A stretch of 64,000 nt of DNA from a virus (Duplodnaviria; Heunggongvirae; Uroviricota; Caudoviricetes): the IMG/VR virus record IMGVR_UViG_3300037400_003880; one strand, given 5' to 3'. The position numbers and the translations under genes are program-made. The notes under the pieces were generated by a model that was not told the DNA's origin, did not search any database, and saw nothing but the letters and a program-made list of their open reading frames with translations. This document shows positions 41,021 through 64,000 of the stretch, in pieces. Numbering within the stretch: the stretch's first letter is position 1; each line of letters starts with the position of its first letter.

Positions 41021-41593
41021 ATGAATAAAATCTTTTTTACAAGTGACCTTCATTTCAATCATGATAGAGAGTTCATTTATGGACCTCGCGGCTTCAAGAC
41101 TGTACAGGAAATGAATGAGACTCTTATCCGTAACTGGAACGAGACAGTATATCTTTATGATGACGTTTATGTTCTTGGAGACTTTTTTCTTGGCACAGAT
41201 TATGCGTACATCAGAGAGGTTCTTGATAATCTGAACGGTCGTATTCATCTGGTAATCGGCAATCACGATACACCTTCCAAAATCACTGAGTATACAAACT
41301 GGAGCAACATTGTTGAAATTGCCGATGCACTTCGTATCAAGTACAAGAAGAGAGAGTTCTTCCTCTGCCATTACCCTGTTCTTACTGCAAGTCTTGAGCA
41401 GGACCCCGACAGAGCAGTAATCAATCTTTTCGGTCATACTCACAGCAAGGATAAGTTCTATGAGGATCGCCCCTATATGTACAATGTGGCTGTAGACGCA
41501 AATGATAATAAGCCAGTTGAGATTGAAGACATTCTCACGGCGTTCAACAACAAGGTTAAAGAGTGTATTTCAACACTCGGAGAGGATGAGTAA
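41021..41593 (+). CDS. calcineurin-like metallophosphoesterase (second copy, YfcE-like)
   Basis: SDLHFNHD, LGDFF, GNHD and GHTH motifs. Confidence 0.75.
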   Translation: MNKIFFTSDLHFNHDREFIYGPRGFKTVQEMNETLIRNWNETVYLYDDVYVLGDFFLGTDYAYIREVLDNLNGRIHLVIGNHDTPSKITEYTNWSNIVEIADALRIKYKKREFFLCHYPVLTASLEQDPDRAVINLFGHTHSKDKFYEDRPYMYNVAVDANDNKPVEIEDILTAFNNKVKECISTLGEDE

Positions 41594-44185: not shown

Positions 44186-44372
44186 TAATTATACTGTGCC
44201 GCAATCCTATAATTTATAGGGTCGCGGCACTTTCTGAAAAAATTAGATTTTGTTAAAATTAATACTACTTATATAGGTAGAGGAATAGATAGGAAGTCAT
44301 GAGCCTATCGAAAGCGAACTCCGCGTTTTCCTCTACCTTTTATTATATTTCGGAGTAACGGAGGAAGATTTA

Positions 44373-48115: not shown

Positions 48116-48190
48116 TGGGGTATCGCCAAGTGGTAAGGCACAGGACTTTGACTCCTGCATCCGTGGGTTCAAATCCCTCTACCCCAACCA
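48116..48190 (+). tRNA. tRNA-Gln (anticodon TTG), CCA encoded
   Basis: U1:A72 acceptor TGGGGTA/TACCCCA. D-arm GCCAAGTGGTAAGGC. Anticodon loop CTTTGAC. T-loop TTCAAAT. Closely resembles E. coli tRNA-Gln. Confidence 0.75.
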
Positions 48191-48193
48191 TAT

Positions 48194-48271
48194 GCCGGTG
48201 AAGCTTAAGTGGTATAAGCACTCCCCTTATAAGAGAGAGATAGATGGGTTCGAGTCCCTCGACCGGCACCA
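48194..48271 (+). tRNA. tRNA, identity uncertain (anticodon loop CTTATAA reads TAT; Ile2-like?), non-canonical T-stem
   Basis: Acceptor GCCGGTG/GACCGGC. D-arm GCTT..AAGC. T-loop TTCGAGT. CCA encoded. The anticodon stem has one mismatch. Confidence 0.45.
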
Positions 48272-48280
48272 ATAAATAAT

Positions 48281-48309
48281 TTGACTTTTTTATGGAAATA
48301 TGGTATAAT
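48281..48309 (+). promoter_or_regulatory. conserved promoter
   Basis: TTGACTTTTTT..ATGGTATAAT. Confidence 0.55.
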
Positions 48310-48330
48310 ATTTATAGAGAGGTGAGAGAA

Positions 48331-48510
48331 ATGACTGTAAAAGATTTAAGCGTAAAGATGGAAGCCTTAATTGAAAATGGTTAGGCTGACATTGAAGTCA
48401 TGGTATATGATATGCATGAGGGGTGGAAGCCTTATGTATATGAGGATACTTCTTTCCATGGCGGAAAGATTTATCTTGGACTTCCTGAAGTGAAAGTAAC
48501 AAGTGAATAA
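48331..48510 (+). CDS. small hypothetical protein (59 aa, 1 in-frame TAG)
   Basis: GAGGTGAGAG ribosome-binding site, then ATG at 48331. A TAG at codon 18 is read through to TAA 48508-10. Confidence 0.4.
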
Positions 48511-48511
48511 T

Positions 48512-48540
48512 TTGACTTTCTAAGAAAAATATGCTATAAT
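48512..48540 (+). promoter_or_regulatory. conserved promoter
   Basis: TTGACTTTCTA..ATGCTATAAT. Confidence 0.55.
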
Positions 48541-48546
48541 ATTTAT

Positions 48547-48614
48547 AGACAGGTCAGCAATTCAAATTTTAAGGACTATGCTTTTAACATAAAATTCTTA
48601 AACAATCTGTCTTG
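48547..48614 (+). ncRNA. Y RNA-like stem-closed element (short, stem-loop only)
   Basis: 5' AGACAGGTCAGCAA pairs with 3' CTGTCTTG. Family motif present. Confidence 0.4.
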
Positions 48615-48654
48615 AAATGGTTCGGCATCACTCCATTCAAAAGCGGTGTCAGAT

Positions 48655-48728
48655 GCGCCTATCGTCTAAAGGTAGGACACTACACTTTTAATGTAGGTAT
48701 TCGGGTTCGAGTCCCGGTGGGCGCACCA
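48655..48728 (+). tRNA. tRNA-Lys (TTT), CCA encoded
   Basis: Acceptor GCGCCTA/TGGGCGC. Anticodon stem CTACA/TGTAG with loop CTTTTAA. T-loop TTCGAGT. Confidence 0.75.
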
Positions 48729-48732
48729 GCAT

Positions 48733-48835
48733 ACGGCAGTTCAGCAATCCACTTTTTATTGCAGCCAAAAATTTTTGCAAGCGTATGGTTCGACTCCTGC
48801 GTTAATTCGGAGACGGTCTCCAAAGGTCTGTCGTG
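48733..48835 (+). ncRNA. Y RNA-like stem-closed element with T-loop-like GGTTCGACTCC and internal GGAGACGGTCTCC hairpin
   Basis: 5' ACGGCAGTTCAGCAATCC ... 3' CTGTCGTG. Family motif TCAGCAA present. Confidence 0.4.
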
Positions 48836-48841
48836 TATTAT

Positions 48842-48932
48842 GTCGAGATGGGTGAGTTGGCTTAAACCAGCGGTTTGCTAAACCGCCGACCGGCACAAAG
48901 CCGGTCCGAGGGTTCGAATCCCTCTCTCGACG
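48842..48932 (+). tRNA. tRNA-Ser (GCT), class II
   Basis: Acceptor GTCGAGA/TCTCGAC. Anticodon stem GCGGT/ACCGC with loop TTGCTAA. Long variable arm GACCGGCACAAAGCCGGTC. T-loop TTCGAAT. Confidence 0.7.
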
Positions 48933-48963
48933 CTTTCAAATTATTGAGAAAGAGGTGAGTCCA

Positions 48964-49194
48964 TTGGGCATAAAAGATTCCAACTGCTGGAAATATTTTC
49001 TGAGTAAAGCTCCATATGATGTTCTTGTAACAATTATGAAGAATACAGGAATTTGTCCAGTTGCCGCTTTGATGGGAGAATTTGACATTAACATATGTCT
49101 TCTTCATCATCCTCATAGAATATTTAAGACTCTTGAGGAAGAAGCTGTTTGTTATGAGTGCCTTCAAAAATGGCTAAACGAAAAAACTCAATGA
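48964..49194 (+). CDS. small Cys-rich protein inside the tRNA array (start uncertain: GTG 48955 or TTG 48964)
   Basis: Track ORF 48955-49194. AGAGGTGA ribosome-binding site. CxxC...CYEC. Confidence 0.35.
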   Translation: MGIKDSNCWKYFLSKAPYDVLVTIMKNTGICPVAALMGEFDINICLLHHPHRIFKTLEEEAVCYECLQKWLNEKTQ

Positions 49195-49195
49195 T

Positions 49196-49224
49196 TTGAC
49201 TTTTGAAGAAAAAAGTGATATAAT
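49196..49224 (+). promoter_or_regulatory. conserved promoter driving the suppressor tRNA pair
   Basis: TTGACTTTTGA..AGTGATATAAT. Confidence 0.55.
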
Positions 49225-49292
49225 TATTATAGTAAAGGCACAAACAGCAAGAATATCGTCCAACCTTAGAACGATACGTGTCTTGGCGAGAT

Positions 49293-49368
49293 TTCGGTTT
49301 CGCCAAGTGGGTAAGGCAGCGGGCTCTAACCCCGCCATTCGGGGGTTCAAATCCCTCAACCGAAACCA
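49293..49368 (+). tRNA. amber suppressor tRNA (anticodon CTA) on a tRNA-Gln-like scaffold, CCA encoded
   Basis: TTCGGTT TC GCCAAGTGGGTAAGGC A GCGGG CTCTAAC CCCGC CATTC GGGGGTTCAAATCCCTC AACCGAA A CCA. U1:A72. The D-arm and T-loop are nearly identical to the tRNA-Gln at 48116. Confidence 0.8.
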
Positions 49369-49439
49369 TTCTCCTTCGCCAAGCGGTAAGGCAGCGGGCT
49401 CTAACCCCGTCAGCCAAGGTTCGAATCCTTGAGGAGAAG
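49369..49439 (+). tRNA. second amber suppressor tRNA (anticodon CTA), directly abutting the first; no CCA
   Basis: TTCTCCT TC GCCAAGCGGTAAGGC A GCGGG CTCTAAC CCCGT .. CAAGGTTCGAATCCTTG AGGAGAA G. The anticodon stem and loop are the same as copy 1. Confidence 0.75.
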
Positions 49440-49443
49440 TGTA

Positions 49444-49530
49444 AAGACGGTTCAGCAAAACACAAATGGTTAAAGAAAAATTCTGCAAAAATTTTTTGAA
49501 ACGGTTCAAATCCGTAAATTTCCCGTCTTG
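49444..49530 (+). ncRNA. Y RNA-like element with closing stem AAGACGG/CCGTCTT and internal T-arm-like ACGGTTCAAATCCGT
   Basis: Family 5' motif GACGGTTCAGCAAAAC. 7 bp terminal stem. Confidence 0.45.
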
Positions 49531-49535
49531 TTAAT

Positions 49536-49564
49536 TTGACTTTTTTCTTAGAGTATGATATAAT
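49536..49564 (+). promoter_or_regulatory. conserved promoter
   Basis: TTGACTTTTTT..ATGATATAAT. Confidence 0.55.
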
Positions 49565-49613
49565 AAATATGTACTTAAAAGTACGGAGCGAAATTCTCCT
49601 TAAACTACAAAAT

Positions 49614-49687
49614 GCGGCTATGGTGTAGTGGTAACATTTCTGCCTTCCAAGCAGACGTGGCGGGTTCGAGTCCCGTTAGCCGCTCCA
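49614..49687 (+). tRNA. tRNA-Gly (TCC), CCA encoded
   Basis: Acceptor GCGGCTA/TAGCCGC. Anticodon stem TCTGC/GCAGA with loop CTTCCAA. T-loop TTCGAGT. Confidence 0.75.
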
Positions 49688-49730
49688 GCTGTTGGTAAAC
49701 AGGTTGGCTCAATTGCCCGAAGCTTCCAAA

Positions 49731-49971
49731 AGACAGGTCAGCAATCCTTATAGAAATGTAATATTTAGAATAGGATTGAAAACTAACGGTATTAGTTTTG
49801 CTCGGGACGACTACTATGAAAGGAATGAGGTAAAACTCTCAACCGAGCTTATAGCGGCTGCCGGCTTTCGTGGCAGGAACCTTCGCCAGTCGTTACTACA
49901 CAGCGACATTAAAGAAGTGTGAGTATTGATGCAGCCTCCCTTTACGGGATTTAGATTTAGTACCTGTCTTG
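49731..49971 (+). ncRNA. Y RNA-like element, long form (about 241 nt)
   Basis: 5' AGACAGGTCAGCAATCC ... 3' TACCTGTCTTG. Highly structured interior. Confidence 0.4.
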
Positions 49972-50460
49972 AAAATTGAATGGTCGGCATTCGCTTGTGC
50001 CTTCCCCATAAGTTAAATTCAAGCCTCTACTGTGCTTATATCCCGTCTATTATGTTCGTCCGGAAGTGCGGCACATTAAATAACGCGGCGAAAAGAACAT
50101 TAGAACTCTCGTATATAGACTCAGGATAAGTGGAGCGAGACTAAATAAGTACCCGTTTGGCACGAGTTGTGCTAAATCCGAATCGTTCCTTATACTGCCA
50201 TATGAGGAGCGTCTGTGGCAGCAGTAATGAGACAGAAAGCTCTCAGAGTTGTACAGCTCAAAGCTTTCTCGCAATCCGCCGGTGTGAATGGGCGGTACCT
50301 TGTGAGTTAGTAGATGGACATAACTCTCCGTCTGGTTTGGCGTGAACGGACTGCTCAAAGGGTTCAACTCCCTTTCAATAGGATGTGCCTATTGCTACGG
50401 TTTAGGAGTTGGCACCAAGTACAAGCCTCCACGCGGCGGTGCTGGATTTGAACTAATTGT
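49972..50460 (+). ncRNA. unclassified structured non-coding region (about 490 nt) with T-loop-like AAGGGTTCAACTCCCTT and several GTCTG/CAGAC long-range complements
   Basis: No credible ORF; the track ORFs here overlap on both strands and are low-complexity. Lies between a Y-like element and a conserved promoter. No tmRNA, RNase P or group I core motifs were recognised. Confidence 0.3.
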
Positions 50461-50472
50461 ACAAAAGATTAT

Positions 50473-50501
50473 TTGACTTTTTATAAAAATTATGATATAA
50501 T
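50473..50501 (+). promoter_or_regulatory. conserved promoter
   Basis: TTGACTTTTTA..ATGATATAAT. Confidence 0.55.
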
Positions 50502-50522
50502 ATTTATAGAAAGTAAAGAGAA

Positions 50523-50598
50523 CGCGGGTTAGAGCAGTTGGTAGCTCGTCAGGTTCATTACCTGAAGGTCAGGGGTTCGAGTCCCTTACCCGCAACCA
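50523..50598 (+). tRNA. tRNA-Met/fMet-like (CAT), C1·A72 mismatch, CCA encoded
   Basis: Acceptor CGCGGGT/ACCCGCA. D-arm GAGC..GCTC. Anticodon stem TCAGG/CCTGA with loop TTCATTA. Confidence 0.6.
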
Positions 50599-50601
50599 AA
50601 T

Positions 50602-50677
50602 CGCCCCATCGTCTAAATGGTAAGGACGCGTCCCTTTCAAGGAGGTAATGCGAGTTCGATTCTCGCTGGGGTGACCA
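50602..50677 (+). tRNA. tRNA-Glu (TTC), CCA encoded
   Basis: Glu-type D-arm GTCTAAATGGTAAGGAC. Anticodon loop CTTTCAA. T-arm GCGAGTTCGATTCTCGC. Confidence 0.65.
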
Positions 50678-50685
50678 GCACGTTA

Positions 50686-50762
50686 CGACAAATCAGCAAA
50701 ACACTTCTTTCTTCAGAAATTAGAGAGATAAAGTCGTGCATTATCTTTAATAGTTTGTCGTG
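50686..50762 (+). ncRNA. Y RNA-like short element
   Basis: 5' CGACAAATCAGCAAAACAC ... 3' TTTGTCGTG. Confidence 0.4.
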
Positions 50763-50769
50763 AAAAATG

Positions 50770-50838
50770 GCGCGGTAGTGTAAAGGTAGCATAGTAGAGT
50801 CATTATCTACTGATTCAAGTTCGAGTCTTGACTGCGCA
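50770..50838 (+). tRNA. short tRNA with CAT anticodon (Met or Ile-lysidine type), reduced D-arm
   Basis: Acceptor GCGCGGT/ACTGCGC. Anticodon stem GTAGA/TCTAC with loop GTCATTA. T-arm CAAGTTCGAGTCTTG. Confidence 0.45.
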
Positions 50839-50842
50839 ATAA

Positions 50843-50966
50843 AAGATGTGTCAGCAAAACACTTAGTTATGGCATTTTAAGCCTCAGAATGTTGGTTCGA
50901 GTCCAACCCTCTCTTTGGAGAGGTAGCTTAATTGGCAGAGCGGAGAAAAACGAAAAACACATCTTG
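50843..50966 (+). ncRNA. Y RNA-like element with permuted tRNA-like module
   Basis: 9 bp closing stem AAGATGTGT/ACACATCTT. Interior: T-arm GTTGGTTCGAGTCCAAC, acceptor 3' strand CCTCTCT, TT, acceptor 5' strand GGAGAGG, TA, D-arm GCTTAATTGGCAGAGC. Confidence 0.5.
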
Positions 50967-51190
50967 TTTTAATGCCCGAGTACCCCAATCGGCAGAGGGA
51001 GCGGACTTTGATGTATTCTATCACAAAAGTGATACTACTGAAAAGTAGAGAGTGCCCCAAGAGAAATCTTGGAAGTAGAAGATGGCTAAAACGGCGAAGG
51101 CGAATACAGAACGCCGTGCAAGGATTTTAGGCAGACGGAAAGTTTTAGATGGATTTTTGCGTGATACCACTTATAAGTGAGGTGATAGAA

Positions 51191-51697
51191 ATGCAGAAGT
51201 ACACTAAAGAGTGGTTAGAAGAGCTTTGTGCAAACAGCTTTTCTTACGCAGAGGTTTTAAGAAAAGCCGGTCGTAAGCAAGGCGGTGGAACACAAGCGAC
51301 TCTAAAAAAGAAGATTGAAGAATTTAATATTGATGTCTCTCATTTTACGGGGCAAGGGTGGAATGGTCATTCTAATACCGTTGTTGATGTAAATAGAGAG
51401 AAATATTCAATAGAAGAAATCTTCATTAAGAACAGCCCAGTTACACAAAAAGTTATGAGAGGATATGTTGAAAGGCACAATCTTCTTGAGTACAAATGTG
51501 TTAATTGTGGTTGTGATGGAAATTGGCAAGGCGGCACAATCTCATTAGAGATTGACCATATTGATGGAGATAATTCTAATAATGAATTATCAAATCTCCG
51601 TTATTTATGTCCCAATTGTCACGCTCTTACTGAAACTTATCGAGGAAAAAACAAAGCCCTGAAATCTATGTGTAGAGACTGTACACCATCAGCCTAA
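51191..51697 (+). CDS. HNH homing endonuclease
   Basis: GGTGATAGAA ribosome-binding site, then ATG at 51191. HNH motif EIDHIDGDNSNNELSNLRYLCPNCHALTE. A 33-codon ORF upstream (51082-51183) lies in a different frame. Confidence 0.75.
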   Translation: MQKYTKEWLEELCANSFSYAEVLRKAGRKQGGGTQATLKKKIEEFNIDVSHFTGQGWNGHSNTVVDVNREKYSIEEIFIKNSPVTQKVMRGYVERHNLLEYKCVNCGCDGNWQGGTISLEIDHIDGDNSNNELSNLRYLCPNCHALTETYRGKNKALKSMCRDCTPSA

Positions 51698-51713
51698 ATC
51701 GAAAGATATGGTT

Positions 51714-51878
51714 AAGACACAGTCCAGACTACAACACAGCAATGTGGCTATGGTGACATAGTGTAGTACGAAAATCCGTATAGTGTGGGTTCGAATCCCA
51801 TTTCGGGCACCATTCTTATTGGGCTTATATGGCTTGGCTGTCACCATATGGCAGCGGCTCAATAGGAAACCAAGCCTT
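51714..51878 (+). ncRNA. Y RNA-like/tRNA-like structured element
   Basis: AAGACACAG...ACACAGCAATG motif. Internal stem CTATGGTGACA/TGTCACCATAG. T-arm-like GTGGGTTCGAATCCCAT. Confidence 0.35.
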
Positions 51879-51950
51879 AAGACGGTTCAGCAACTCTATA
51901 TAATAGAACTGTGTATTTGTGAACGCTGTTAATTTATATTGTCCGTCTTG
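51879..51950 (+). ncRNA. Y RNA-like short element
   Basis: 5' AAGACGGTTCAGCAACTC ... 3' GTCCGTCTTG. Confidence 0.45.
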
Positions 51951-51957
51951 TTTAAAT

Positions 51958-52032
51958 CGAGGACGTGGTGTAATTGGTAACACACCACATTTGGGATGTG
52001 GGGTAGCGGTTCGAGTCCGACGTCTTCGACCA
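51958..52032 (+). tRNA. tRNA-Pro (TGG), CCA encoded; weak T-stem
   Basis: Anticodon stem CCACA/TGTGG with loop TTTGGGA. T-loop TTCGAGT. Acceptor (C)GAGGAC/GTCTTCG with G·U pairs. Confidence 0.55.
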
Positions 52033-52129
52033 GCCCATAAGGGCAATCTTGATTTTTTCATCATTATTCATAATAATACCTCCAGAGTTATTATGAAAGT
52101 GTCGCATTATTGCGGAATGCGACACAAAT

Positions 52130-52206
52130 CGGGAATTAGCCCAATTGGCAGAGGCATACGTTTAAGGTGCGTATTAGTGAGGGTTCGAGTCCCTTGTTCC
52201 CGACCA
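52130..52206 (+). tRNA. class-I tRNA with Leu-type anticodon (loop TTTAAGG/TTAAGGT; TAA or AAG), A73, CCA encoded
   Basis: Acceptor CGGGAAT/GTTCCCG. D-arm GCCCAATTGGCAGAGGC. Anticodon stem (A)TACGT/GCGTA(T). T-arm GAGGGTTCGAGTCCCTT. Preceded by a 10 bp hairpin GTGTCGCATT..AATGCGACAC. Confidence 0.5.
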
Positions 52207-52393
52207 TCAGGTAAGCAGAGCTACCCGTCATTCGGTGACAAAGCTGCTCGGAGCGTTAACACGGATTTTGGATTAGTAAACTACTACCGGCGAGAGGTCG
52301 CTCCTCTCGATATGTAGCTTGCGGCAAACGCTCCGTTAATAAATAAGAAGGCGAAGTAACTAGTCCACCATTAAAAGAAAGGAGAGAATAGTC

Positions 52394-52897
52394 GTGGATA
52401 TGAAAAAGTTTCATCGTGGTAATGGAGACATTGTAACTCATGATGAAATGGTCAAGATTGCAGCTGATTATATCAGTGCTGATCCATCTCAGGAGTATGA
52501 AATTACTGTAGGGACTGATAGCCAAAACCATTCACAAACAAAAATGGTTGAAGTTATTGCTCTTCACAGAATTGGACACGGCGGCATCTTCTTCTATAGG
52601 GTTGATTATGTTCGTAAGATTAAGTCACTAAAGGAGAAGATTGTAGAAGAAACCTCGCGTTCTCTTGAGAATGCATCAGGGTTACTTGACGATGTTCAAC
52701 TTCAGTTGCTTGAAGAAGGCATTGATATTGATGACTTGAATATTCATTTCATTATTCATTGTGATATTGGTCATGAAGGAAAAACTCAGGCTTTAATTAA
52801 GGAAATTGTAAGTTGGGTTCATTCCGCAGGTTATGAATGTCAAATCAAGCCAGACAGCTATGCGGCTTCTGGTATTGCAAATAAGATTTCTAAATGA
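52394..52897 (+). CDS. hypothetical protein inside the tRNA array (H..GHGG / DIGHEG motifs; RNase-H-like fold?)
   Basis: AAAGGAGAG ribosome-binding site. Track ORF. Preceded by a structured leader with 7-8 bp helices. Confidence 0.5.
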   Translation: MDMKKFHRGNGDIVTHDEMVKIAADYISADPSQEYEITVGTDSQNHSQTKMVEVIALHRIGHGGIFFYRVDYVRKIKSLKEKIVEETSRSLENASGLLDDVQLQLLEEGIDIDDLNIHFIIHCDIGHEGKTQALIKEIVSWVHSAGYECQIKPDSYAASGIANKISK

Positions 52898-52916
52898 GGT
52901 GTTAATCACCTCAGAT

Positions 52917-52994
52917 GCCGTGGTAGTCCAACTGGCAGGAGACGTTTGCCTTAGGAGCAAAACAGTATGGGTTCGAATCCCTTCTACGGCACCA
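52917..52994 (+). tRNA. class-I tRNA with anticodon TAG (Leu CUA/CUG codons), A73, CCA encoded
   Basis: Acceptor GCCGTGG/CTACGGC. Anticodon stem TTTGC/GCAAA with loop CTTAGGA. T-loop TTCGAAT. Confidence 0.55.
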
Positions 52995-52996
52995 TT

Positions 52997-53090
52997 AAGA
53001 CAGCGCAGCAAATTTGAATAGCTCCATTTATATACACATAAAATGTATTTTAACAAAAGTGTCTCTGCTATAATGACACGAGCTGTCTTG
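52997..53090 (+). ncRNA. Y RNA-like element
   Basis: 5' AAGACAGCGCAGCAAATT ... 3' GAGCTGTCTTG. Confidence 0.4.
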
Positions 53091-53110
53091 TAATTTAATT
53101 CAAACTTATT

Positions 53111-53230
53111 AAGACTCTCCAGCAATCTGAGAAGGATTTCTTTCCAGTGTAGCCAAGTGGGTTAAGGCAGCGGCATCAAAGCCGTGATTCTCCGGTTCGA
53201 ATCCGGACTCCGGACAAAAAAAGAGTCTTG
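53111..53230 (+). ncRNA. Y RNA-like element enclosing a pseudo-tRNA (anticodon CAA, degenerate acceptor)
   Basis: 8 bp closing stem AAGACTCT/AGAGTCTT. The interior TCCAGTG TA GCCAAGTGGGTTAAGGC A GCGGC ATCAAAG GCCGT .. TCCGGTTCGAATCCGGA CTCCGGA has the Gln/Sup-like D-arm. Confidence 0.45.
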
Positions 53231-53236
53231 AGTTAT

Positions 53237-53309
53237 GGTGTAAGTGGTGAAATGGCTATCACGGCGGTTTGTGGCACCGCAGTTAAGAGTTCGATTCTCT
53301 TCTTATGCC
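53237..53309 (+). tRNA. tRNA-His (GTG) with encoded G-1:C73
   Basis: 8 bp acceptor GGTGTAAG/CTTATGCC. D-stem GTGA/TCAC. Anticodon stem GCGGT/ACCGC with loop TTGTGGC. T-arm AAGAGTTCGATTCTCTT. Confidence 0.7.
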
Positions 53310-53330
53310 CTTTATTTATCAATTAAAATA

Positions 53331-53359
53331 TTGACTTTTTGAGAAAAATATGGTATAAT
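53331..53359 (+). promoter_or_regulatory. conserved promoter
   Basis: TTGACTTTTTG..ATGGTATAAT. Confidence 0.55.
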
Positions 53360-53382
53360 ATTTATAGAAAGTGAGGGAAAAT

Positions 53383-53622
53383 ATGAAACAATTTATTATT
53401 TTAGAGGTATGCAATGAGGATTATTACATTTTCGATACTGTTAATGAAGCTATTCTCTATGCAATAGGGAAGGTTTGTAAATGGGTAAAAGATGAGGTGT
53501 TGGGAATGACAAAAGAAAGCGCAGGAGAGATTATCCTTGAAATGATGGATAGTAAGACTGACCATTCTTTTTATGTCGATGACGTTTTTTACTGTTATCC
53601 CGCACAATATATTAAGGAATAA
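53383..53622 (+). CDS. hypothetical protein
   Basis: AGTGAGGGAAAA ribosome-binding site, then ATG at 53383. Confidence 0.45.
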   Translation: MKQFIILEVCNEDYYIFDTVNEAILYAIGKVCKWVKDEVLGMTKESAGEIILEMMDSKTDHSFYVDDVFYCYPAQYIKE

Positions 53623-53639
53623 GTAAAGGAGAGAGTTAA

Positions 53640-53768
53640 ATGAGTAAAGAGCTGAGAATCCAGATGATGGAAAATCGAATTGTCTTGCTTATGTCTCGCG
53701 GCGAGACTATGAATGCAAGAATTGTAGCGAAGCTAAAGCGACAGCTTCGCAAGCTCAAGGGCGAGTAA
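53640..53768 (+). CDS. small basic protein (42 aa)
   Basis: AAGGAGAGAG ribosome-binding site. MSKELRIQMMENR... Below the track cutoff. Confidence 0.35.
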   Translation: MSKELRIQMMENRIVLLMSRGETMNARIVAKLKRQLRKLKGE

Positions 53769-53780
53769 TCGCCCACTTAT

Positions 53781-53854
53781 GGGGATGTGGTGCAAGTGGC
53801 AGACGCGGCTGTCTCAAAAACAGTTTTTTGTGGGTTCGAATCCCACCATCCCCA
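53781..53854 (+). tRNA. class-I tRNA with anticodon CAA (Leu UUG codon), A73
   Basis: Acceptor GGGGATG/CATCCCC. Anticodon stem GCTGT/ACAGT with loop CTCAAAA. T-arm GTGGGTTCGAATCCCAC. Confidence 0.55.
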
Positions 53855-53942
53855 CTGGCGCGCAGGTTTGATGCAATGCGACATATACAGAAATCCGTGT
53901 ACTATAGAGTATTCCTGCACAATCTATAGCGGTATTTAATTT

Positions 53943-54089
53943 AAGACACGCACAGCAAAGTTTTTTATAAATGGACAGTAAATCCGTTGGGGAAGTCCCT
54001 TCGTAGGTGCAAATCCTATCCTCGCCCACCAATATGGGTGAGTAGCCAAGTAGACAAAGGCGGCGGAACCATATGTAAAAAGTGTCTTG
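53943..54089 (+). ncRNA. Y RNA-like element with permuted tRNA-like module
   Basis: Closing stem AAGACAC/GTGTCTT. Interior: T-arm-like GTAGGTGCAAATCCTAT, acceptor 3' strand CCTCGCC plus CACCA, ATAT, acceptor 5' strand GGGTGAG, TA, D-arm GCCAAGTAGACAAAGGC. Confidence 0.45.
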
Positions 54090-54093
54090 AGAT

Positions 54094-54179
54094 GCGGAGA
54101 TGCCCGAGTGGTTGATGAGGACGGTCTGCAAAACCGTTGGCTTGCGCCCGCGTGGGTTCGAATCCCACTCTCCGCTCCA
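54094..54179 (+). tRNA. class-II (long variable arm) tRNA with anticodon GCA (Cys codons) and U73, CCA encoded
   Basis: Acceptor GCGGAGA/TCTCCGC. Tyr/Ser-like D-arm CCCGAGTGGTTGATGAGG. Anticodon stem ACGGT/ACCGT with loop CTGCAAA. 14 nt variable arm TGGCTTGCGCCCGC. T-arm GTGGGTTCGAATCCCAC. Confidence 0.55.
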
Positions 54180-54182
54180 AAT

Positions 54183-54256
54183 GCAGAATTAGTTTAATGG
54201 TAGAATTGGTGCTTCCCATGCACTTGACGCGGGTTCGATTCCCGTATTCTGCTCCA
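54183..54256 (+). tRNA. tRNA-Gly (CCC), CCA encoded
   Basis: Acceptor GCAGAAT/ATTCTGC. Anticodon loop TTCCCAT. T-arm GCGGGTTCGATTCCCGT. Confidence 0.7.
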
Positions 54257-54258
54257 GT

Positions 54259-54385
54259 AAGGTAGGTCAGCAAGAAGAACTAAAATTTTGTTCCAACTCT
54301 TATGTTGATGGTTCGAGTCCATCCTCACTCGCAAGTGTGAGTAGTTCAACTGGCAGAACAAAGGGTAAAAATTTAACCTATCTTG
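54259..54385 (+). ncRNA. Y RNA-like element with permuted tRNA-like module
   Basis: Closing stem GGTAGGT/ACCTATC with TCAGCAAG. Interior: T-arm GATGGTTCGAGTCCATC, acceptor 3' strand CTCACTC, loop GCAAGT, acceptor 5' strand GTGAGTA, D-arm GTTCAACTGGCAGAAC. Confidence 0.5.
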
Positions 54386-54417
54386 ATTATATCTGAGTTT
54401 AATTCTCTTCGGAGTAT

Positions 54418-54508
54418 CAAAGGCACAAAACAGCGGCGTACTTCTAAGTTCGATTCTTAACTCCTCCACCAATATGGGGGAGTAGCCCTTGGAGGGCTAT
54501 GTGTCTTG
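54418..54508 (+). ncRNA. Y RNA-like/tandem tRNA-like fragment element
   Basis: T-arm-like CTAAGTTCGATTCTTAA. CTCCTCC ACCA ATAT GGGGGAG TA GCCC. Ends ATGTGTCTTG. Confidence 0.35.
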
Positions 54509-54512
54509 ATTT

Positions 54513-54585
54513 GTCTCATTAGTTCAACAGGATAAAACAGTTTCCTCCTAAGAAACAGTTACAGGTTCGAGTCCTGTATGGGGCA
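54513..54585 (+). tRNA. tRNA-Arg (CCT)
   Basis: Acceptor GTCTCAT/ATGGGGC with two G·U pairs. Anticodon stem GTTTC/GAAAC with loop CTCCTAA. T-arm ACAGGTTCGAGTCCTGT. Confidence 0.55.
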
Positions 54586-54642
54586 CTGGGCGTTACTGCC
54601 CAAGTTATTTTCGACGTAAGTCTTGCGGCATGACTATAAACT

Positions 54643-54750
54643 GCCGTTGATGATGCGGAGGTGCGCAAGTGGTCATAAGCGCATAGCCTTGAAAGCTATT
54701 GTGTCAGCTTAGTATCTGACCCGTGGGTTCGAATCCCACTCTCCGCGCCA
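54643..54750 (+). tRNA. tRNA-Ser (TGA), class II, CCA encoded
   Basis: Acceptor GCGGAGG/TCTCCGC. Anticodon stem ATAGC/GCTAT with loop CTTGAAA. 21 nt variable arm. T-arm GTGGGTTCGAATCCCAC. Confidence 0.7.
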
Positions 54751-54989: not shown

Positions 54990-56459
54990 ATGAGTAATTT
55001 TGCAAACGCTTTTGGTAGAATGGCAGACATGACTATGACCGAGAATGGTGGACGCGCTTTCAGTACTACCGGTTCAGCTTTGCTTGACCTGTTCGCTAAT
55101 ATCGGTGGCATGAGAAATCGAGACACTTCTGATGTTGTTTCTGCATGGCAGGCAGCTCGGAAGGAAGATAAGGAGCTTGCGGATAATCTGATCCTCTATG
55201 CCCGTGATATTCGTAACACTGGTCTCGGTGAGCGTAAGATTGGTCGTGCCCTCCTGAAGGCTCTCGGTGATGCTGATCCTCAGAAGGTAATCCGTAACTT
55301 TGAAACCATTGTTGCGGCAGGTCGTTGGGATGACTTGTTCATCTTTGTGGGTAACCCTGCAATTGAGAACAAGATGTGGGATTATGTTGAAGAGCAGTTC
55401 CGTGCTGATGTAAAGGGTGTAAAGCTTAACCAGCCTATCTCTTTGCTCGGTAAGTGGATGCCTTCCATTAACACCAGCTCTCAGGAGACTCGTAAGCTCG
55501 CACGTCGTGCCTGCGCGCACTTGGGTCTGACTGAGCGTACTTATCGTAAGAGCCTTAGCGCGCTTCGTAAGCATATCAACATTGTTGAGCGTCTTATGAG
55601 CGCCGGCGAGTGGGATAAGATTGACTTCGAGTCTGTACCTTCTGTAGCTATGTCTCGTTATATCAATACTTATAACAAGCGTTGTCAGGAGCGTTTTGCT
55701 GAATACAAGGCTTCCCTCGTAAAGGGTGAAGCTAAGGTTAATGCAGCAACTTTGTATCCTTATGACATTGTTATGAAGGCATTGAATAGCGGATACTACG
55801 GGAAGATGACTCTTGATGCTGTTGACGAAGCACAATGGAAGGCTCTGCCTAACTATGTGTCTGGTGAGAATGAGGTCGTTGTAATGGCGGACGTGTCTGG
55901 TTCTATGAGCTGTGACATGAATCGTCCTATGGCAACTTCTATCGGTCTTGCCACCTATTTCGCACAGAGGAACAAGGGTGCATATCACAATATGTATCTT
56001 ACCTTTACCTCTCAGCCTGCTTTCATTCATCTCAAGGATGAGTGGAGTTTGGCAGACTGCCTTAACTATGTGAAGAGTCATGGTGTAGGTTATAGCACTA
56101 ATCTGGATGCGGCTTTCGCTGCAATCTATGAGGTTGCTGTTCGCACCAATGAAGCTCCAAAGGCACTGGTTGTAATCTCTGACATGGAGATTGATAGCTG
56201 GTACTCTGGTAACTTCTGCGACTCTATCGCAAGTAAGTGGGAGAGAAAGTATGCAGCCGTTGGCTTGAAGGCTCCTAAGCTTATCCTTTGGAACGTAGAA
56301 TCTCGTGGTGGACGTGTGCTCGCACAGCAGTCTGATCGTGTAGGTTTCGTTTCTGGATATGGCGTTGGTCCTTTCGCAAACTTGACCTCTCTTATCGACA
56401 AGAGTGCTTACGAGGCAATGAAGGAAATTCTTTCTAAGCCTGCATTCCAGTGGAAGTAA
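54990..56459 (+). CDS. Ro60/TROVE-like protein with C-terminal vWA domain (Rsr-like, DUF2828-type; tentative)
   Basis: AAAAGGAGAAA ribosome-binding site. An N-terminal alpha-helical region of about 290 aa is followed by a vWA MIDAS motif VVVMADVSGSMS and LVVISDMEID. Lies directly downstream of the Y RNA-like/tRNA array. Confidence 0.55.
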   Translation: MSNFANAFGRMADMTMTENGGRAFSTTGSALLDLFANIGGMRNRDTSDVVSAWQAARKEDKELADNLILYARDIRNTGLGERKIGRALLKALGDADPQKVIRNFETIVAAGRWDDLFIFVGNPAIENKMWDYVEEQFRADVKGVKLNQPISLLGKWMPSINTSSQETRKLARRACAHLGLTERTYRKSLSALRKHINIVERLMSAGEWDKIDFESVPSVAMSRYINTYNKRCQERFAEYKASLVKGEAKVNAATLYPYDIVMKALNSGYYGKMTLDAVDEAQWKALPNYVSGENEVVVMADVSGSMSCDMNRPMATSIGLATYFAQRNKGAYHNMYLTFTSQPAFIHLKDEWSLADCLNYVKSHGVGYSTNLDAAFAAIYEVAVRTNEAPKALVVISDMEIDSWYSGNFCDSIASKWERKYAAVGLKAPKLILWNVESRGGRVLAQQSDRVGFVSGYGVGPFANLTSLIDKSAYEAMKEILSKPAFQWK

Positions 56460-59978: not shown

Positions 59979-60914
59979 ATGAAGCATTATGTAGATATTG
60001 AGCGTTTTAAGGTAAAGTACGACGAGTGCATGCGCGCCGGTGACGAGATTGTCGTACAAGAGAAGATTGATGGAGCCAATGCATCTTTTACTTACGATCC
60101 CGCACAGGATAAGGTTCTGGCTTTTTCTCGTAAGAATGAGCTGAATGAGGCAAATAATCTCCGTGGTTTCTGGGATTGGACTCAGCGTCTTGACAAGAAG
60201 GGTGTCGCTCATATGACTCAGAATGGTCGCTATGTAATTTTCGGCGAGTGGCTTGTAAAGCATACTGTTCGTTATCCTGAGCATGAGTATAATCATTTCT
60301 GGATGTTCGATGTATGGGATACGCAGGACGAGAAGTGGCTTCACTATGATGATGTTCGTGCAATTCATGCGGGACTTTTGAGTGTAGCCCAGCTCACGCA
60401 GGAGGTTATTAACTTCGTCCCTGTATTCTATGACGGTCCGTTCATTTCTTGGGATCACCTTTACCAGATGGTTGGACGTACTGACGTAAATGCGGAGCCT
60501 TGCGGCGAGGGCATCGTAATTAAGAACCAGAACACTATTGACATTCCGGAGTGGCGCCTGCCTACCTATGTCAAGATTGTATCGGAGAAGTTCTCTGAGG
60601 TTCACGTTGGTCATGCTAAGAAGCTCATTGATCCTGCTGTTCTTGCAGCTCGTGAGGCAGAGCGTCAGATGGTTGCGACTGTAGTTACCGAGCGCCGTGT
60701 AGCTAAAATATTGGAAAAGTTTGTAGATAATGGTATACTTCCAGAAGACTGGGACGAAAAAAATATGAAGGATGTTGCTAAGAATCTCCCTAAAGCAGTT
60801 TATGAGGATTGTATAAAAGAAGAACCAGATATTGTAAAAGCGTGTGAAGACTTTGGAAAAATATGTGGTAAGATTTCTATGGATTATGTTCGTCAATTTC
60901 TTTCTGCTCGATAA
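59979..60914 (+). CDS. ATP-dependent RNA ligase (Rnl2-like nucleotidyltransferase)
   Basis: Motif I EKIDGAN (adenylated lysine), motif IV EGIVIKNQ, motif V KIVSEKF. Size about 311 aa. GAGAGGAGAA ribosome-binding site. Confidence 0.7.
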   Translation: MKHYVDIERFKVKYDECMRAGDEIVVQEKIDGANASFTYDPAQDKVLAFSRKNELNEANNLRGFWDWTQRLDKKGVAHMTQNGRYVIFGEWLVKHTVRYPEHEYNHFWMFDVWDTQDEKWLHYDDVRAIHAGLLSVAQLTQEVINFVPVFYDGPFISWDHLYQMVGRTDVNAEPCGEGIVIKNQNTIDIPEWRLPTYVKIVSEKFSEVHVGHAKKLIDPAVLAAREAERQMVATVVTERRVAKILEKFVDNGILPEDWDEKNMKDVAKNLPKAVYEDCIKEEPDIVKACEDFGKICGKISMDYVRQFLSAR

Positions 60915-60969
60915 CGAAAATTGTTGATGAACTTTCTTAGTTATCTACTTATAGATAGGAGGTGATAAG

Positions 60970-61884
60970 ATGGGAAAGTTCATTGATTTAACTGGATAGA
61001 AATTTGGACGATTAACTGTCTTAGAAAAAGATATGGAAAGAAGTAAAAATACAACTTATTGGAAATGTATCTGTGAATGTGGAAAAGAATTTTCCACAAG
61101 AGGAACTTCATTAAGAAATGGAAAAACAACTTCTTGTGGTTGTGCGCGAATCGAAAAAGTCAAAGAATCATTAACGATAGATTTAACAGGACAAGTTTTT
61201 GAAAATTTAACTGTAATTAAACAAGTTCAAACAGAAGAAAAAGGTGCTCATTGGTTATGTTCTTGTAAATGTGGAAATACAATTATTGTTAATGGAAGTG
61301 ACCTGCGTGCTGGCGTAGTAAAATCTTGTGGATGCTTATCAGGAAAATTGCAAAGTGCGTCTTTATGCAAAAAATTAGACGGACTAACTTTTGGAAAATG
61401 GCGCGTTATAGAAAGAGACCTAAAATAGATAGGAGACGGCGCAAGATGGATTTGCCAATGTCAATGTGGACAAATAAGAAGTGTTGCAGCAAGCAGTTTA
61501 ATTTCTGGAAGAAGCTTGTCTTGTGGTTGTTTACATTCCGCAGGGGAGTATAAAATTTCATGTCTATTAAATAAAAACAATATTCACTATGAAAAAGAAT
61601 ATATCTTTCCAGATTTGGTCGGAAATAAGTTGCCTTTAAGATTTGATTTCGCAATAAAAAATGACAATGATGAAGTCATCTGCTTAGTTGAATTTTAGGG
61701 CGAACAGCATTATAAATATTCTGATTACTTTGAAAAAAAACAAAGCTTCGAAGATCGCCAGAGATATGACCAGATGAAGCGAGATTATTGTCAAAGAAAA
61801 AATCTTTTGTTAATTGAAGTCCCATATTGGGATTATGAGAAATTAAATGATGATTATGTAAAGGAGTGGCTGAAGTCTCGATGA
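60970..61884 (+). CDS. Cys-repeat plus DUF559-like nuclease paralog 3 (304 aa, 3 TAG)
   Basis: AGGAGGTGA ribosome-binding site. LTGQKFGRLTV..W.C.C.CG..CGC repeats. LRFDFAI..VEF-TAG-GEQHY..RQRYDQMKRDYC..LLIEVPY. Confidence 0.55.
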
Positions 61885-62090
61885 AGAACTTCATTTCTGT
61901 TTTCTTTGTGATGATTGGTCTTGTCAGCTTAATTGCTGGCATCAGCATTATCTTGCAGACGGCTGTACTTTTTATTATAGCTTTGATTGCAAAGAATGTA
62001 ATTGGTGCTATATTTTGGGGGTTTCTCTGGTTTATTGAAATGTTGGTAATGAACTATGTCGTGAATTTTTATCATGGAGAGGGACAATAA
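61881..62090 (+). CDS. small membrane protein
   Basis: ATG overlaps the upstream stop. Two transmembrane helices. Confidence 0.45.
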   Translation: MKNFISVFFVMIGLVSLIAGISIILQTAVLFIIALIAKNVIGAIFWGFLWFIEMLVMNYVVNFYHGEGQ

Positions 62091-62101
62091 TATTAAAATA
62101 T

Positions 62102-62130
62102 TTGACTTTTTTCATAAAAAGTAGTATAAT
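62102..62130 (+). promoter_or_regulatory. conserved promoter
   Basis: TTGACTTTTTT..AGTAGTATAAT. Confidence 0.55.
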
Positions 62131-62160
62131 ATTTATAGAAAATGAAAAGGAGAGGGAACA

Positions 62161-62676
62161 ATGAGAAACTTACTTGTTGTCGTAGATATGCAGAATGATT
62201 TCATTACCGGCGCCCTGGCTAATCCAGAGGGGCAGAAGATTGTCGGGAAGATTGCGGATTTTATTTATGATTTTCCCGGAGGAGTTGTATATACCGCAGA
62301 CACCCATTATGATAATTATTTGGAAACTCAAGAAGGAAAGCGGCTTCCTATCTCTCATTGTATTGAAGGGTCTGAAGGATGGAGAATTGTTCCAGAAATT
62401 GAAAGAGCCCTTGAAGCTCGAGATGCAGCCCAGTTTATTAAGCATTCTTTCGGCAGCAGAGAACTCGCAAAATTTGTTCAGTATCATTTTTATGATGAAG
62501 TATATTTTGTCGGGGTTTGTACAGATATTTGCGTAATTTCTAATGCAATGCTTTGCAAGGCGTTTGCTCCTGAAATAAGGATTGTTGTGCTGAAGGATAT
62601 GTGTGCTGGCGTAACACCAGAAAGCCATGAGACTGCACTTAAGGCGATGCAGGCTTGTCAGATTGATGTTGAGTAA
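62161..62676 (+). CDS. pncA: nicotinamidase (isochorismatase-family cysteine hydrolase)
   Basis: VVVDMQNDF, catalytic Cys in VGVCTDICV, Lys/Asp triad context. Confidence 0.75.
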   Translation: MRNLLVVVDMQNDFITGALANPEGQKIVGKIADFIYDFPGGVVYTADTHYDNYLETQEGKRLPISHCIEGSEGWRIVPEIERALEARDAAQFIKHSFGSRELAKFVQYHFYDEVYFVGVCTDICVISNAMLCKAFAPEIRIVVLKDMCAGVTPESHETALKAMQACQIDVE

Positions 62677-62687
62677 GGAGAGTTATA

Positions 62688-63905
62688 ATGAGATTTGAAC
62701 CAATTATTAAGAGCTTGCTTGAAAACGATATGTATAAATTTAGCATGGGGCAGGCTATTTATCACCAGTTTCCTGAGTATATGACGACATGGACGTTTAA
62801 ATGTCGTAATGAAGGAGTTAAGTTTACTTATGAGATGGTCAAGGAAATCAAGGAGCAGATTAAAGCTTATTGCAGTCTCCGTTTTACGGAGGATGAGCTT
62901 GATTACCTCGATGAGATTAAGTGGATCAAGGGTTCGTATGTAAACTTCCTGCGTATCTGGCAGCCGAGATATGAGGACTTCGAGATTTCTGGCGAGGGGG
63001 CATACGGGCTGAGTATTGAAACCAAGGGAACGTGGCTTAATACTTCGATGTATGAGATTCCCGTGCTCGCAATTGTAAATGAAGTTTACTTCCGAATGCG
63101 CTATGATTACGACCATCTTTATCAGGTATTTAAGGAGAAGTTCCAGCAGAAGTCTAAAAAGCTTGTAAGTGGAGAATATCATATGGGGAGATTCTCTGAG
63201 TTTGGTCTTAGACGTAGGCTGTCTGGTGAAGCACAGGATTACGCAGTAAGAAATCTTCGTAATTTTTTGCTCAATAGTCTTGATCGAGCGAGATTCGTAG
63301 GAACGTCGAACGTTTATCTGGCAAAGAAATACGGACTTACTCCTGTCGGCACGATGGCGCATGAGTGGATTATGTGCGTAGGGCAAGGTAATCATCGACA
63401 CAATCCAGCTTATTCTAACTATTACGCTCTCAATGCATGGATTAAGGAATATGGCGTACTTAATGGTATCGCATTGACTGATACTATTACTACTGATGTT
63501 TTCCTGCGAGACTTTGACCTTGAGAAGGCGACCTTGTTTAGCGGAGTTCGTCATGATTCCGGCGACCCTCGTATTTGGGGTGAAAAGATTATTGACCATT
63601 ATTGCGAACTTGGTATTGATCCGCAGTCTAAGACGCTTCTGTTTTCGGATAGCCTTGACTTTGAGCGAGCTACATCTCTTTCCAACTACTTTTATGACAG
63701 AATCAATGTAGCTTTCGGTATCGGTACCTATCTATCTAATGATACCGATGTGCCGGCGCTCAATATCGTGATGAAACCAACATTTTGCAATGGACAGGAT
63801 GTGGCAAAGCTGTCTGATGCAGAGGGTAAGTGTATGTGTAAAAATGAAGCATATGTGAAGTACCTTAAGCGATCCATTGGATGGCGTATTGACCACGAGA
63901 TTTAA
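62688..63905 (+). CDS. pncB: nicotinate phosphoribosyltransferase
   Basis: Size about 405 aa. GTSN and TMAHEW motifs typical of NAPRTase. Adjacent to pncA. Confidence 0.8.
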   Translation: MRFEPIIKSLLENDMYKFSMGQAIYHQFPEYMTTWTFKCRNEGVKFTYEMVKEIKEQIKAYCSLRFTEDELDYLDEIKWIKGSYVNFLRIWQPRYEDFEISGEGAYGLSIETKGTWLNTSMYEIPVLAIVNEVYFRMRYDYDHLYQVFKEKFQQKSKKLVSGEYHMGRFSEFGLRRRLSGEAQDYAVRNLRNFLLNSLDRARFVGTSNVYLAKKYGLTPVGTMAHEWIMCVGQGNHRHNPAYSNYYALNAWIKEYGVLNGIALTDTITTDVFLRDFDLEKATLFSGVRHDSGDPRIWGEKIIDHYCELGIDPQSKTLLFSDSLDFERATSLSNYFYDRINVAFGIGTYLSNDTDVPALNIVMKPTFCNGQDVAKLSDAEGKCMCKNEAYVKYLKRSIGWRIDHEI

Positions 63906-63946
63906 AACAAAGGGGTGAGTTGTAATATACCGCCCCTTTTATTTAT

Positions 63947-63975
63947 TTGACTTTCTTTTTAATTTATGATATAAT
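63947..63975 (+). promoter_or_regulatory. conserved promoter
   Basis: TTGACTTTCTT..ATGATATAAT. Confidence 0.55.
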
Positions 63976-64000
63976 ATTTATAGAAAATGAAATGGAGGTT

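Follow-up and report, generated by a model that had tools for sequence, protein, structure and literature searches.

A putative host-derived pncA-pncB operon encoding the entry steps of NAD salvage in a large phage

Results

The pncA-pncB transcription unit

The sequence studied here (the window) is a 64,000-nucleotide (nt) stretch of the Caudoviricetes record IMGVR_UViG_3300037400_003880, and its gene content is that of part of a large phage genome; approximately 120 kb of genome lies beyond the window, outside all of the window scans. Near the 3' end of the window, two adjacent open reading frames (ORFs) encode a putative nicotinamidase (PncA) and a putative nicotinate phosphoribosyltransferase (PncB), the predicted entry enzymes of nicotinamide adenine dinucleotide (NAD) salvage (Table 1). 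A first-pass annotation, made from the sequence alone, had described this pair, a promoter of its own and a distant macro domain protein, and had proposed a likely role in counter-defence against NAD-depleting immunity. Both ORFs were found exactly where that annotation had placed them, 11 nt apart, and the 11-nt spacing is the same in the related contigs L242, L249 and L250.

The promoter was borne out as well. The window contains 23 exact copies of TTGACT-N17-TATAAT (6133 to 63975), always on the + strand, compared to a chance expectation of 0.04, and one of these sites precedes pncA. The terminator hairpin that follows pncB had a computed folding energy of -15.4 kcal/mol (z = -3.7), and a further promoter begins immediately there, at 63947. 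The leader ATTTATAGAAAATGAAA lies 3' of the pncA -10 box; it is repeated at 63970-63992 and, with one mismatch, at 18353. Most of these sites read TTGACTTT, the -10 box being extended by TG.

Table 1. Positions of the pncA-pncB unit, the macro domain gene and its neighbour in the window
Feature	Position	Strand	Remarks
Promoter TTGACT-17-TATAAT	62102..62130	+	Sigma-70/sigma-A type, for host RNA polymerase; predicted to drive pncA-pncB
Shine-Dalgarno GGAGAGGG	62149..62156	+	4 nt 5' of the pncA ATG; read from the sequence
pncA-like nicotinamidase, 171 amino acids	62161..62676	+	D9/K94/C124, D47/H49/H66; TAA stop
Shine-Dalgarno GGAGAG	62677..62682	+	Within the 11-nt pncA-pncB spacer
pncB, nicotinate phosphoribosyltransferase, 405 amino acids	62688..63905	+	His225 in GTMAHEW; TAA stop
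Intrinsic-terminator-like G+C-rich hairpin and U-tract	63909..63947	+	Closes the unit; conserved in L242
Poa1p/DarG-clade macrodomain protein, 163 amino acids	39905..40396	+	Operon separate from pncAB
Calcineurin-like metallophosphoesterase	41021..41593	+	Conserved 3' neighbour of the macro family

Identity and integrity of PncB and PncA

PncB matched PF17767 (NAPRTase_N, 8.6e-29) and PF04095 (NAPRTase, 2e-62) in Pfam, both above the gathering scores, and it matched over its full length the NCBIfam models NF003704 (476.3 bits, cutoff 379) and TIGR01514 (an equivalog, 415.8 bits, cutoff 269.55). A match to phrog_448 was also obtained (2e-16). The protein was aligned end to end with the solved PncB structures 1YIR (2e-90) and 3OS4 (1e-81), and the motif GTMAHEW around His225 paired with GTMAHEW in 1YIR and GTQAHEW in 3OS4. 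We take His225 to be the phospho-histidine, equivalent to His-219, the residue autophosphorylated in the Salmonella enzyme. Loss of catalytic residues from PncB, on which the first-pass annotation had staked its proposal, was not seen: the histidine is present in its motif, the profile scores exceed the cutoffs, and the ratio of nonsynonymous to synonymous substitution rates (dN/dS) is low (see below). The profile searches suggested in that annotation confirmed PncB (NF003704, TIGR01514) and gave a family match for PncA (PF00857).

PncA matched the Isochorismatase family PF00857 at 8.4e-27, and its top sequence match in the PDB was the P. horikoshii nicotinamidase 1ILW (7e-19). D9, K94 and C124 of the phage protein pair with the catalytic residues D10, K94 and C133 of 1ILW, and D47, H49 and H66 with D52, H54 and H71, the metal ligands of that enzyme; none of the six varies across 36 aligned homologues. 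An Asp-x-His...His metal site separates nicotinamidases from most other isochorismatase-family hydrolases. The AlphaFold (AF2) model of PncA (mean predicted local distance difference test score, pLDDT, 97) has a nicotinamidase-like fold. Its top Foldseek matches were the B. subtilis (5ZN8) and P. horikoshii (1ILW) enzymes, and the nicotinamidases of S. pneumoniae, S. mutans, A. baumannii, yeast and M. tuberculosis were also among the top matches. The profile, alignment and model data indicate that the two proteins are very probably the nicotinamidase and the PncB that they appear to be, with the corresponding activities predicted.

Selection and origin

Divergence was measured against contig L242, a 94%-identical relative. 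The dN/dS was 0.06 for pncB (dS 0.57) and 0.23 for pncA (dS 0.82), similar to or below the values of the neighbouring phage genes. Purifying selection thus acts on both genes in a small clade of phages and, as their catalytic residues are also intact, they look functional.

PncB is 70-74% identical to the proteins of isolate Lachnospiraceae and their relatives (Roseburia hominis, R. porci, Agathobacter, Eubacterium uniforme and Butyrivibrio). A pncA homologue is located directly 5' of pncB in approximately half of 80 bacterial loci, at a gap of 16-130 nt. Because the pncA-pncB arrangement is shared with Lachnospiraceae and other Clostridia, and the PncB proteins are ~70-74% identical, the phage pair is read as a captured host operon. 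The hosts of this phage are probably of the Clostridia/Lachnospiraceae type.

The PncB of the window belongs to a clade whose members are 83-100% identical to each other and at most 75% identical to any bacterial or other viral PncB. This clade was distinct in a neighbour-joining tree, in which either the bacterial or the other viral sequences could be its sister. A metagenome scan for PncB included relatives of 70-74% identity among the matches listed, and an exact-protein look-up revealed an identical PncB in a 17-kb Logan contig. The identical protein is also encoded on a JGI contig of 183,275 bp. Synteny within the clade (DUF2828/DUF7788 ... RNA ligase ... small ORFs ... pncA-11 nt-pncB) was observed in independent assemblies from different samples and was kept to as low as 83% PncB identity. 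The DUF2828 + DUF7788 protein is encoded at 54990-56459 in the window, and every clade member has it 5' of the block formed by the RNA ligase and pncAB. In L242, the next gene past the conserved terminator and promoter encodes a T4 Rnl1-type RNA ligase (L242 11323-12441), and a BrxL-like (Lon-like ATPase) gene is present ~4 kb 3' of pncB (L242 15469-16890). Megablast of positions 60000-64000 against 50,697 GenBank phage records gave zero matches, indicating that there is no close cultured relative among those records.

Pathway completeness and viral relatives

Pfam searches of approximately 50 window proteins (TAG translated as Gln) detected no NadD, NadE, NrtR, Nmnat, Adps, Namat, NadR or PnuC, and no NAD-dependent ligase, ADP-ribosyltransferase or sirtuin. 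In tblastn searches of the window with proteins from contigs L244, L248 and L008, no NadD, NadE, NrtR, Prs/Adps-like or NAMPT/Namat-like gene was found. The 62 kb of the window that lie 5' of the pair lack NadD, NadE and DUF5662, and so do the 10 kb 3' of pncB in L242, which contain no NAD gene at all. Within the region seen, the predicted activities of the pair account for two of the four reactions that lead from nicotinamide to NAD and stop at nicotinate mononucleotide (NaMN). The NAD salvage proposed in the first-pass annotation is consequently retained for its first two steps (PncA and PncB), but not as a complete route, as NadD and NadE are encoded neither in the window nor in the 10 kb 3' of the pair in L242.

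The best match of PncB in IMG/VR was 73% identical. The viral comparison set comprised 80 IMG/VR loci with PncB ~72% identical, many of them on contigs of 90-200 kb that, like the window, carry Dam, PNK/HD, RNA ligase and homing-endonuclease genes. NadE was encoded in 77 of these loci, PncA in 73 and a NadD-type nucleotidyltransferase in 67, and the gene order pncA-DUF5662-pncB-nadD-nadE was found in 64. DUF5662 thus lies between pncA and pncB in 64 of the 80 viral loci (e.g. L008 9445-9999), and it does so in 20 metagenome loci; it was present in none of the 80 bacterial genome loci. By these sequence comparisons, DUF5662 is a virus-only gene linked to NAD salvage clusters. The L244 locus (PncB 75%) has the order nrtR-x-pncA-nadD-x-x-x-pncB-nadE, followed by Lar and GmrSD-like genes. 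We infer that the window lineage carries a minimal, two-gene version of these clusters, in which the rest of the pathway is left to host NadD and NadE unless it is encoded outside the region seen.

The macro domain protein

The macro domain protein of the first-pass annotation was also found at its exact position, and it matched phrog_335 (1e-33); the Pfam Macro family (PF01661) gave 20.7 bits (cutoff 22). Its top PDB sequence matches were the DarG macrodomain entries 5M3I (6e-10) and 5M31 (2e-8), followed by yeast Poa1p (1e-7). The AlphaFold (AF2) model (pLDDT 90.5) had Poa1p 6LFR as its top Foldseek match (9e-12), slightly ahead of DarG and TARG1. The ADP-ribose-binding loops NCKGVMGAG and IGCGLAGGDW are conserved. 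H18 pairs with Poa1p H23, which is mutated in entry 6LFS, the roles of H23 and S30 of Poa1p being those given in PDB entry titles only. Sequence and model lead us to conclude that the protein processes some ADP-ribose derivative, and our first guess is a phosphatase activity of the Poa1p/Adpp kind.

An orphan anti-DarT enzyme of the DarG type was considered and rejected as the leading interpretation. The DarG antitoxin macrodomain and human TARG1 resemble the window protein in providing its best PDB sequence matches; however, the catalytic Lys is replaced by Asp in the window protein (FGQDGYGR vs. FPTKKHWR) and the C-terminal half of DarG, which binds DarT, is missing. The DarG model was the only NCBIfam match (55.8 bits, cutoff 250), and the 163 amino acids compare with a model of 338 positions.

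The macro gene is 22 kb from pncAB. Its operon-mates encode an NT5C nucleotidase and small ORFs of unknown kind, and the metallophosphoesterase lies 3'. The start of the latter is likely ATG 41021, as a promoter (40958-40986) falls inside the longer ORF that starts with TTG (40928-41593). The closest relatives of the macro protein outside the window clade (53-54% identity; L251-L254 5140-8269, on contigs of 155-193 kb) are encoded between an NAD-dependent DNA ligase and a 237-amino-acid metallophosphoesterase. The window retains the macro and metallophosphoesterase genes without the ligase at that spot (39905-41593). KptA and a 2H protein, which were sought in relation to a role in RNA repair (KptA/Tpt1 + 2H + macro), were not found among the scanned window proteins.

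Other homologues are located closer to NAD genes. The human gut phage contig MT835544.1 (L248) encodes at 2570-7820 a Prs/Adps-like protein, a NAMPT/Namat-like protein, a macro protein (37% identity), NadE and PncA, and in sequence this cluster resembles NARP1-AP, a phage NAD reconstitution system, joined to enzymes of the deamidated route. The order pncB-nadE-Nudix ... macro was found in 5 of the 80 viral loci. In Bacillus phage FADO, the macro homologue is two genes away from a gene annotated as COG3236, which we take to be a NADAR-type protein. The first-pass annotation had tied the macro protein to NAD salvage, and this was only partly upheld: the homologues in NAD clusters (MT835544.1 and the 5 viral loci) and the Adpp precedent (see Discussion) favour the link, while the separate operon 22 kb away and the ligase/metallophosphoesterase synteny of the relatives do not. 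It is improbable that the macro protein cooperates with pncAB.

Genome context and genetic code

All of the long ORFs of the window are on one strand. The window encodes two endolysins, ThyX, a PAPS-reductase-like protein, UvrD, Dam methylase, an SPFH protein, GIY-YIG and HNH endonucleases, an RNA ligase and a kinase/HD protein. The 53 main genes contain 127 in-frame TAG codons, and none of them ends with TAG. TAG density was 13.4 per 1000 codons in the tail and lysis genes (<17 kb) vs. 5.3 in genes beyond 20 kb, and CAG was scarcer in those tail and lysis genes (3.7 per 1000 vs. 15.4). Two tandem suppressor tRNAs with a CTA anticodon (49293-49368 and 49369-49439) have D and T arms like those of the phage tRNA-Gln(TTG) at 48116-48190. 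TAG is therefore most likely read as Gln (code 15) in this phage; TAG-to-Gln recoding is a known trait of gut phages. No in-frame TAG is present in pncA, pncB or the macro gene.

An array of 19 tRNA genes extends over 48116-54750, with consensus promoters interspersed; one ARAGORN call inside it ('tRNA-???', 53143-53215) has an odd two-base anticodon. An RNA-repair-like set consists of an RNA ligase (PF09414, 59979-60914), a kinase (AAA_33)-HD fusion (42601-43503) and two metallophosphoesterases (40928-41593 and 30126-30905). The combination of these genes with the tRNA array suggests a defence against anticodon nucleases.

Three paralogous genes (34162-34893, 44250-45275 and 60970-61884) encode CxxC zinc-ribbon repeats with a C-terminal E(Y/F)xG(E/K)QHY nuclease-like module; their match to DUF2726 was weak. 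With several in-frame TAG codons apiece, the three resemble mobile endonuclease genes in appearance; the third one lies shortly 5' of the pncA promoter. A Hint/LAGLIDADG intein (24823-26400) interrupts a small kinase- or ATPase-like protein just after its P-loop. The phage also encodes a GH113 glycoside hydrolase (2e-104, 16719-17819) and, at 35411-37120, a secreted protein of adhesin-like type (pAdhesive_15) whose tail is long and rich in Thr.

Discussion

The genes described here probably constitute a functional, host-derived early pncA-pncB operon, retained by a lineage of large gut phages with recoded TAG, that raises the flux of nicotinamide and nicotinate to NaMN, and from there to NAD via the host enzymes. 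Host RNA polymerase would transcribe the operon from its strong consensus promoter. The lack of TAG codons makes both genes translatable before the phage suppressor tRNAs act and, together with the host-type promoter, points to early expression. PncA is predicted to deamidate nicotinamide to nicotinate, and PncB would convert nicotinate, phosphoribosyl pyrophosphate (PRPP) and adenosine triphosphate (ATP) into NaMN. Host NadD (NaMN adenylyltransferase) and NadE (NAD synthetase) would then finish NAD synthesis, and the net outcome may be that, during infection, more nicotinamide and niacin reach the NAD pool. The TIR, SIR2, SEFIR and RES NADases and ADP-ribosyltransferases all release nicotinamide as a common product, which is why the module would be of help when immunity depletes NAD. 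It would be expected to help equally wherever NAD turnover or demand is high or niacin is scavenged, with a possible benefit to phage fitness.

Several observations weigh against this account. The PncA score on NF008623, the sole PncA equivalog hidden Markov model available, was 35.6 bits vs. a cutoff of 174. NF008623 was built on the enterobacterial PncA of 213 amino acids, and we attribute the shortfall to the short architecture of the phage form (171 amino acids); it nevertheless makes the exact substrate less certain. Other amidases with the same D-K-C triad also belong to the isochorismatase superfamily. The promoter proximal to pncA is not kept in the 94% relative, where a consensus promoter lies two small ORFs further 5'; only the window genome thus has the proximal one. 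The ~120 kb of genome beyond the window could encode NadD and NadE, and the dependence on the host would then be wrong. Finally, the activity, expression and NAD role of the phage proteins are all predictions from sequence.

As to what the operon is selected for, a plain auxiliary metabolic role is a serious possibility, although we would stop short of calling it probable. Salvage of niacin and nicotinamide would sustain NAD for replication in salvage-dependent hosts or after host shut-off, with no role in immunity. The architecture of the host operon is copied almost exactly, and among the scanned proteins no NAD-consuming defence-related or anti-defence gene adjoins the pair in the window. 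The complete four-step clusters of the viral relatives, which include NrtR, resemble transplanted metabolism, and the Preiss-Handler and salvage clusters of gut jumbo phages have been read as complementing host NAD synthesis (PMC11662467). This account leaves the virus-only DUF5662, Nudix and macro genes of the viral clusters unexplained. It is also inseparable by sequence from a role in counter-defence, and both may hold together.

Counter-defence as the main selective reason for the operon is a more tentative proposal, and we regard it as rather doubtful. NAD would be rebuilt from the nicotinamide freed by TIR, SIR2, DSR and RES effectors in a deamidated analogue of NARP2, and the macro protein would handle ADP-ribose derivatives. 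Phage NAD synthesis that cancels NAD-depletion defence has precedents in NARP1 and NARP2, counter-defences with experimental support (bioRxiv 10.1101/2024.02.11.579819), and in NARP3 (PnuC + NadR), which is likewise supported by experiments (Sci Adv 2026, PMC13464706). The operon has early-type features, and its surroundings are rich in functions of the counter-defence type (the 19-tRNA array, the RNA ligase and the PNK/HD protein, with Rnl1 directly 3' of the unit in L242). The macro homologues within the MT835544.1 NAD cluster and near pncB-nadE-Nudix in the 5 viral loci point in the same direction. Moreover, Adpp, a Poa1p-like phage macro phosphatase, was experimentally shown to be a NARP1 accessory acting against RES NADases (bioRxiv 10.64898/2026.01.28.702374), and no structure matches the window macro protein better than Poa1p. 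By contrast, only two of the four steps are encoded, so the rate would be limited by host NadD and NadE, and the likely hosts have these two genes as a housekeeping operon. The macro gene is distant, under other promoters, and its closest relatives outside the clade stand beside the NAD-dependent ligase and the metallophosphoesterase; as the PncA/PncB route bypasses ADP-ribose, a macro enzyme is mechanistically unneeded. NARP1, NARP2 and NARP3 all operate without PncA or PncB. A literature search found no paper testing PncA/PncB against NAD-depleting defence, and nothing relevant on a fourth pathway.

It is far less probable that the pair serves to remove nicotinamide, with PncA freeing NAD-consuming enzymes, of the phage or the host, from product inhibition and PncB just clearing nicotinate. 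Nicotinamide is a product inhibitor of sirtuins and ADP-ribosyltransferases; however, the ~50 scanned window proteins include no ADP-ribosyltransferase, sirtuin or NAD-dependent ligase, PncB is conserved more strongly than PncA, and the viral relatives add NadD and NadE, i.e. they lead toward NAD. A functionless recent passenger, or a piece of bacterial DNA joined to the contig by mis-assembly, is suggested by the high similarity of PncB to bacterial PncB but is effectively refuted by the phage-type promoter and leader elements common to other window genes, the identical synteny in independent assemblies from different samples, the purifying selection over a dS of ~0.6-0.8 and the distinct phage clade, at most ~75% identical to other PncB.

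The favoured interpretation, a captured operon feeding host NadD and NadE, can be set beside the systems already described. The pncA-pncB operons of Lachnospiraceae and other Clostridia have the same two enzymes in the same order with a short spacer, but the window pair is under a promoter and leader of a phage family, belongs to its own clade and has no adjoining NrtR. The gut jumbo phage Kuafu_71 carries the Preiss-Handler genes pncB-nadD-nadE, and phage pncA has also been reported, in both cases from bioinformatics only (Microbiome 2024, PMC11662467). Clusters of the Kuafu_71 type and the five-gene clusters found here share with the window a phage pncB, often with pncA, in gut viruses and on the same route to NAD; unlike them, the window lineage has pncA and pncB only, with no NadD, NadE or DUF5662 in the region examined. 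Phage Preiss-Handler clusters are thus already published, and the reduced two-gene form is what the window adds. A 2022 survey of viral NAD and ADP-ribose systems treated NadV, NadM and NadR and did not mention PncA (PMC9503650).

NARP2 (Nampt + Nmnat; NadV/NatV in Vibrio phage KVP40) also starts from nicotinamide and PRPP and uses a phosphoribosyltransferase of the same superfamily as PncB. It is, however, a complete, amidated two-step route via nicotinamide mononucleotide with experimental proof, whereas the route of the window is deamidated, incomplete and known from genes alone. NARP1 and NARP1-AP (Adps + Namat, with or without Adpp) resemble the window in that Adpp and the window macro protein are both structurally closest to Poa1p, but the window has no homologue of Adps or Namat and its macro gene adjoins no NAD gene. 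NARP3 is, like the window pair, a two-gene phage module that channels an NAD precursor to NAD; it differs in its precursor (nicotinamide riboside), in its proteins, in being a complete route and in its experimental proof.

The broadest form of the hypothesis joins these elements, and we put it forward only tentatively, as possible but unlikely. The deamidated route would be a fourth widespread phage strategy of NAD reconstitution, used by phages of gut Firmicutes, with the five-gene form including DUF5662 as the usual version. The two-gene form would parasitise host NadD and NadE and still blunt depletion by TIR, SIR2 and RES effectors. ADP-ribose-1''-phosphate or similar products would fall to a Poa1p-like macro phosphatase encoded at another site in the genome.

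The NAD pool is a central battleground between phages and bacteria, and the three reconstitution pathways with experimental support all come from phages of Proteobacteria or Bacillus. If the operon is only an auxiliary metabolic pair, it represents an ordinary capture of a host operon. The two-gene and five-gene versions constitute a natural pair for comparison, and DUF5662 is flagged as a viral gene linked to NAD salvage. If PncA and PncB do protect phages, counter-defence would reach deamidated salvage and the phages of dominant gut anaerobes, and the entry steps alone could suffice. The window pair is mainly of value as a testable candidate for a fourth route of NAD reconstitution.

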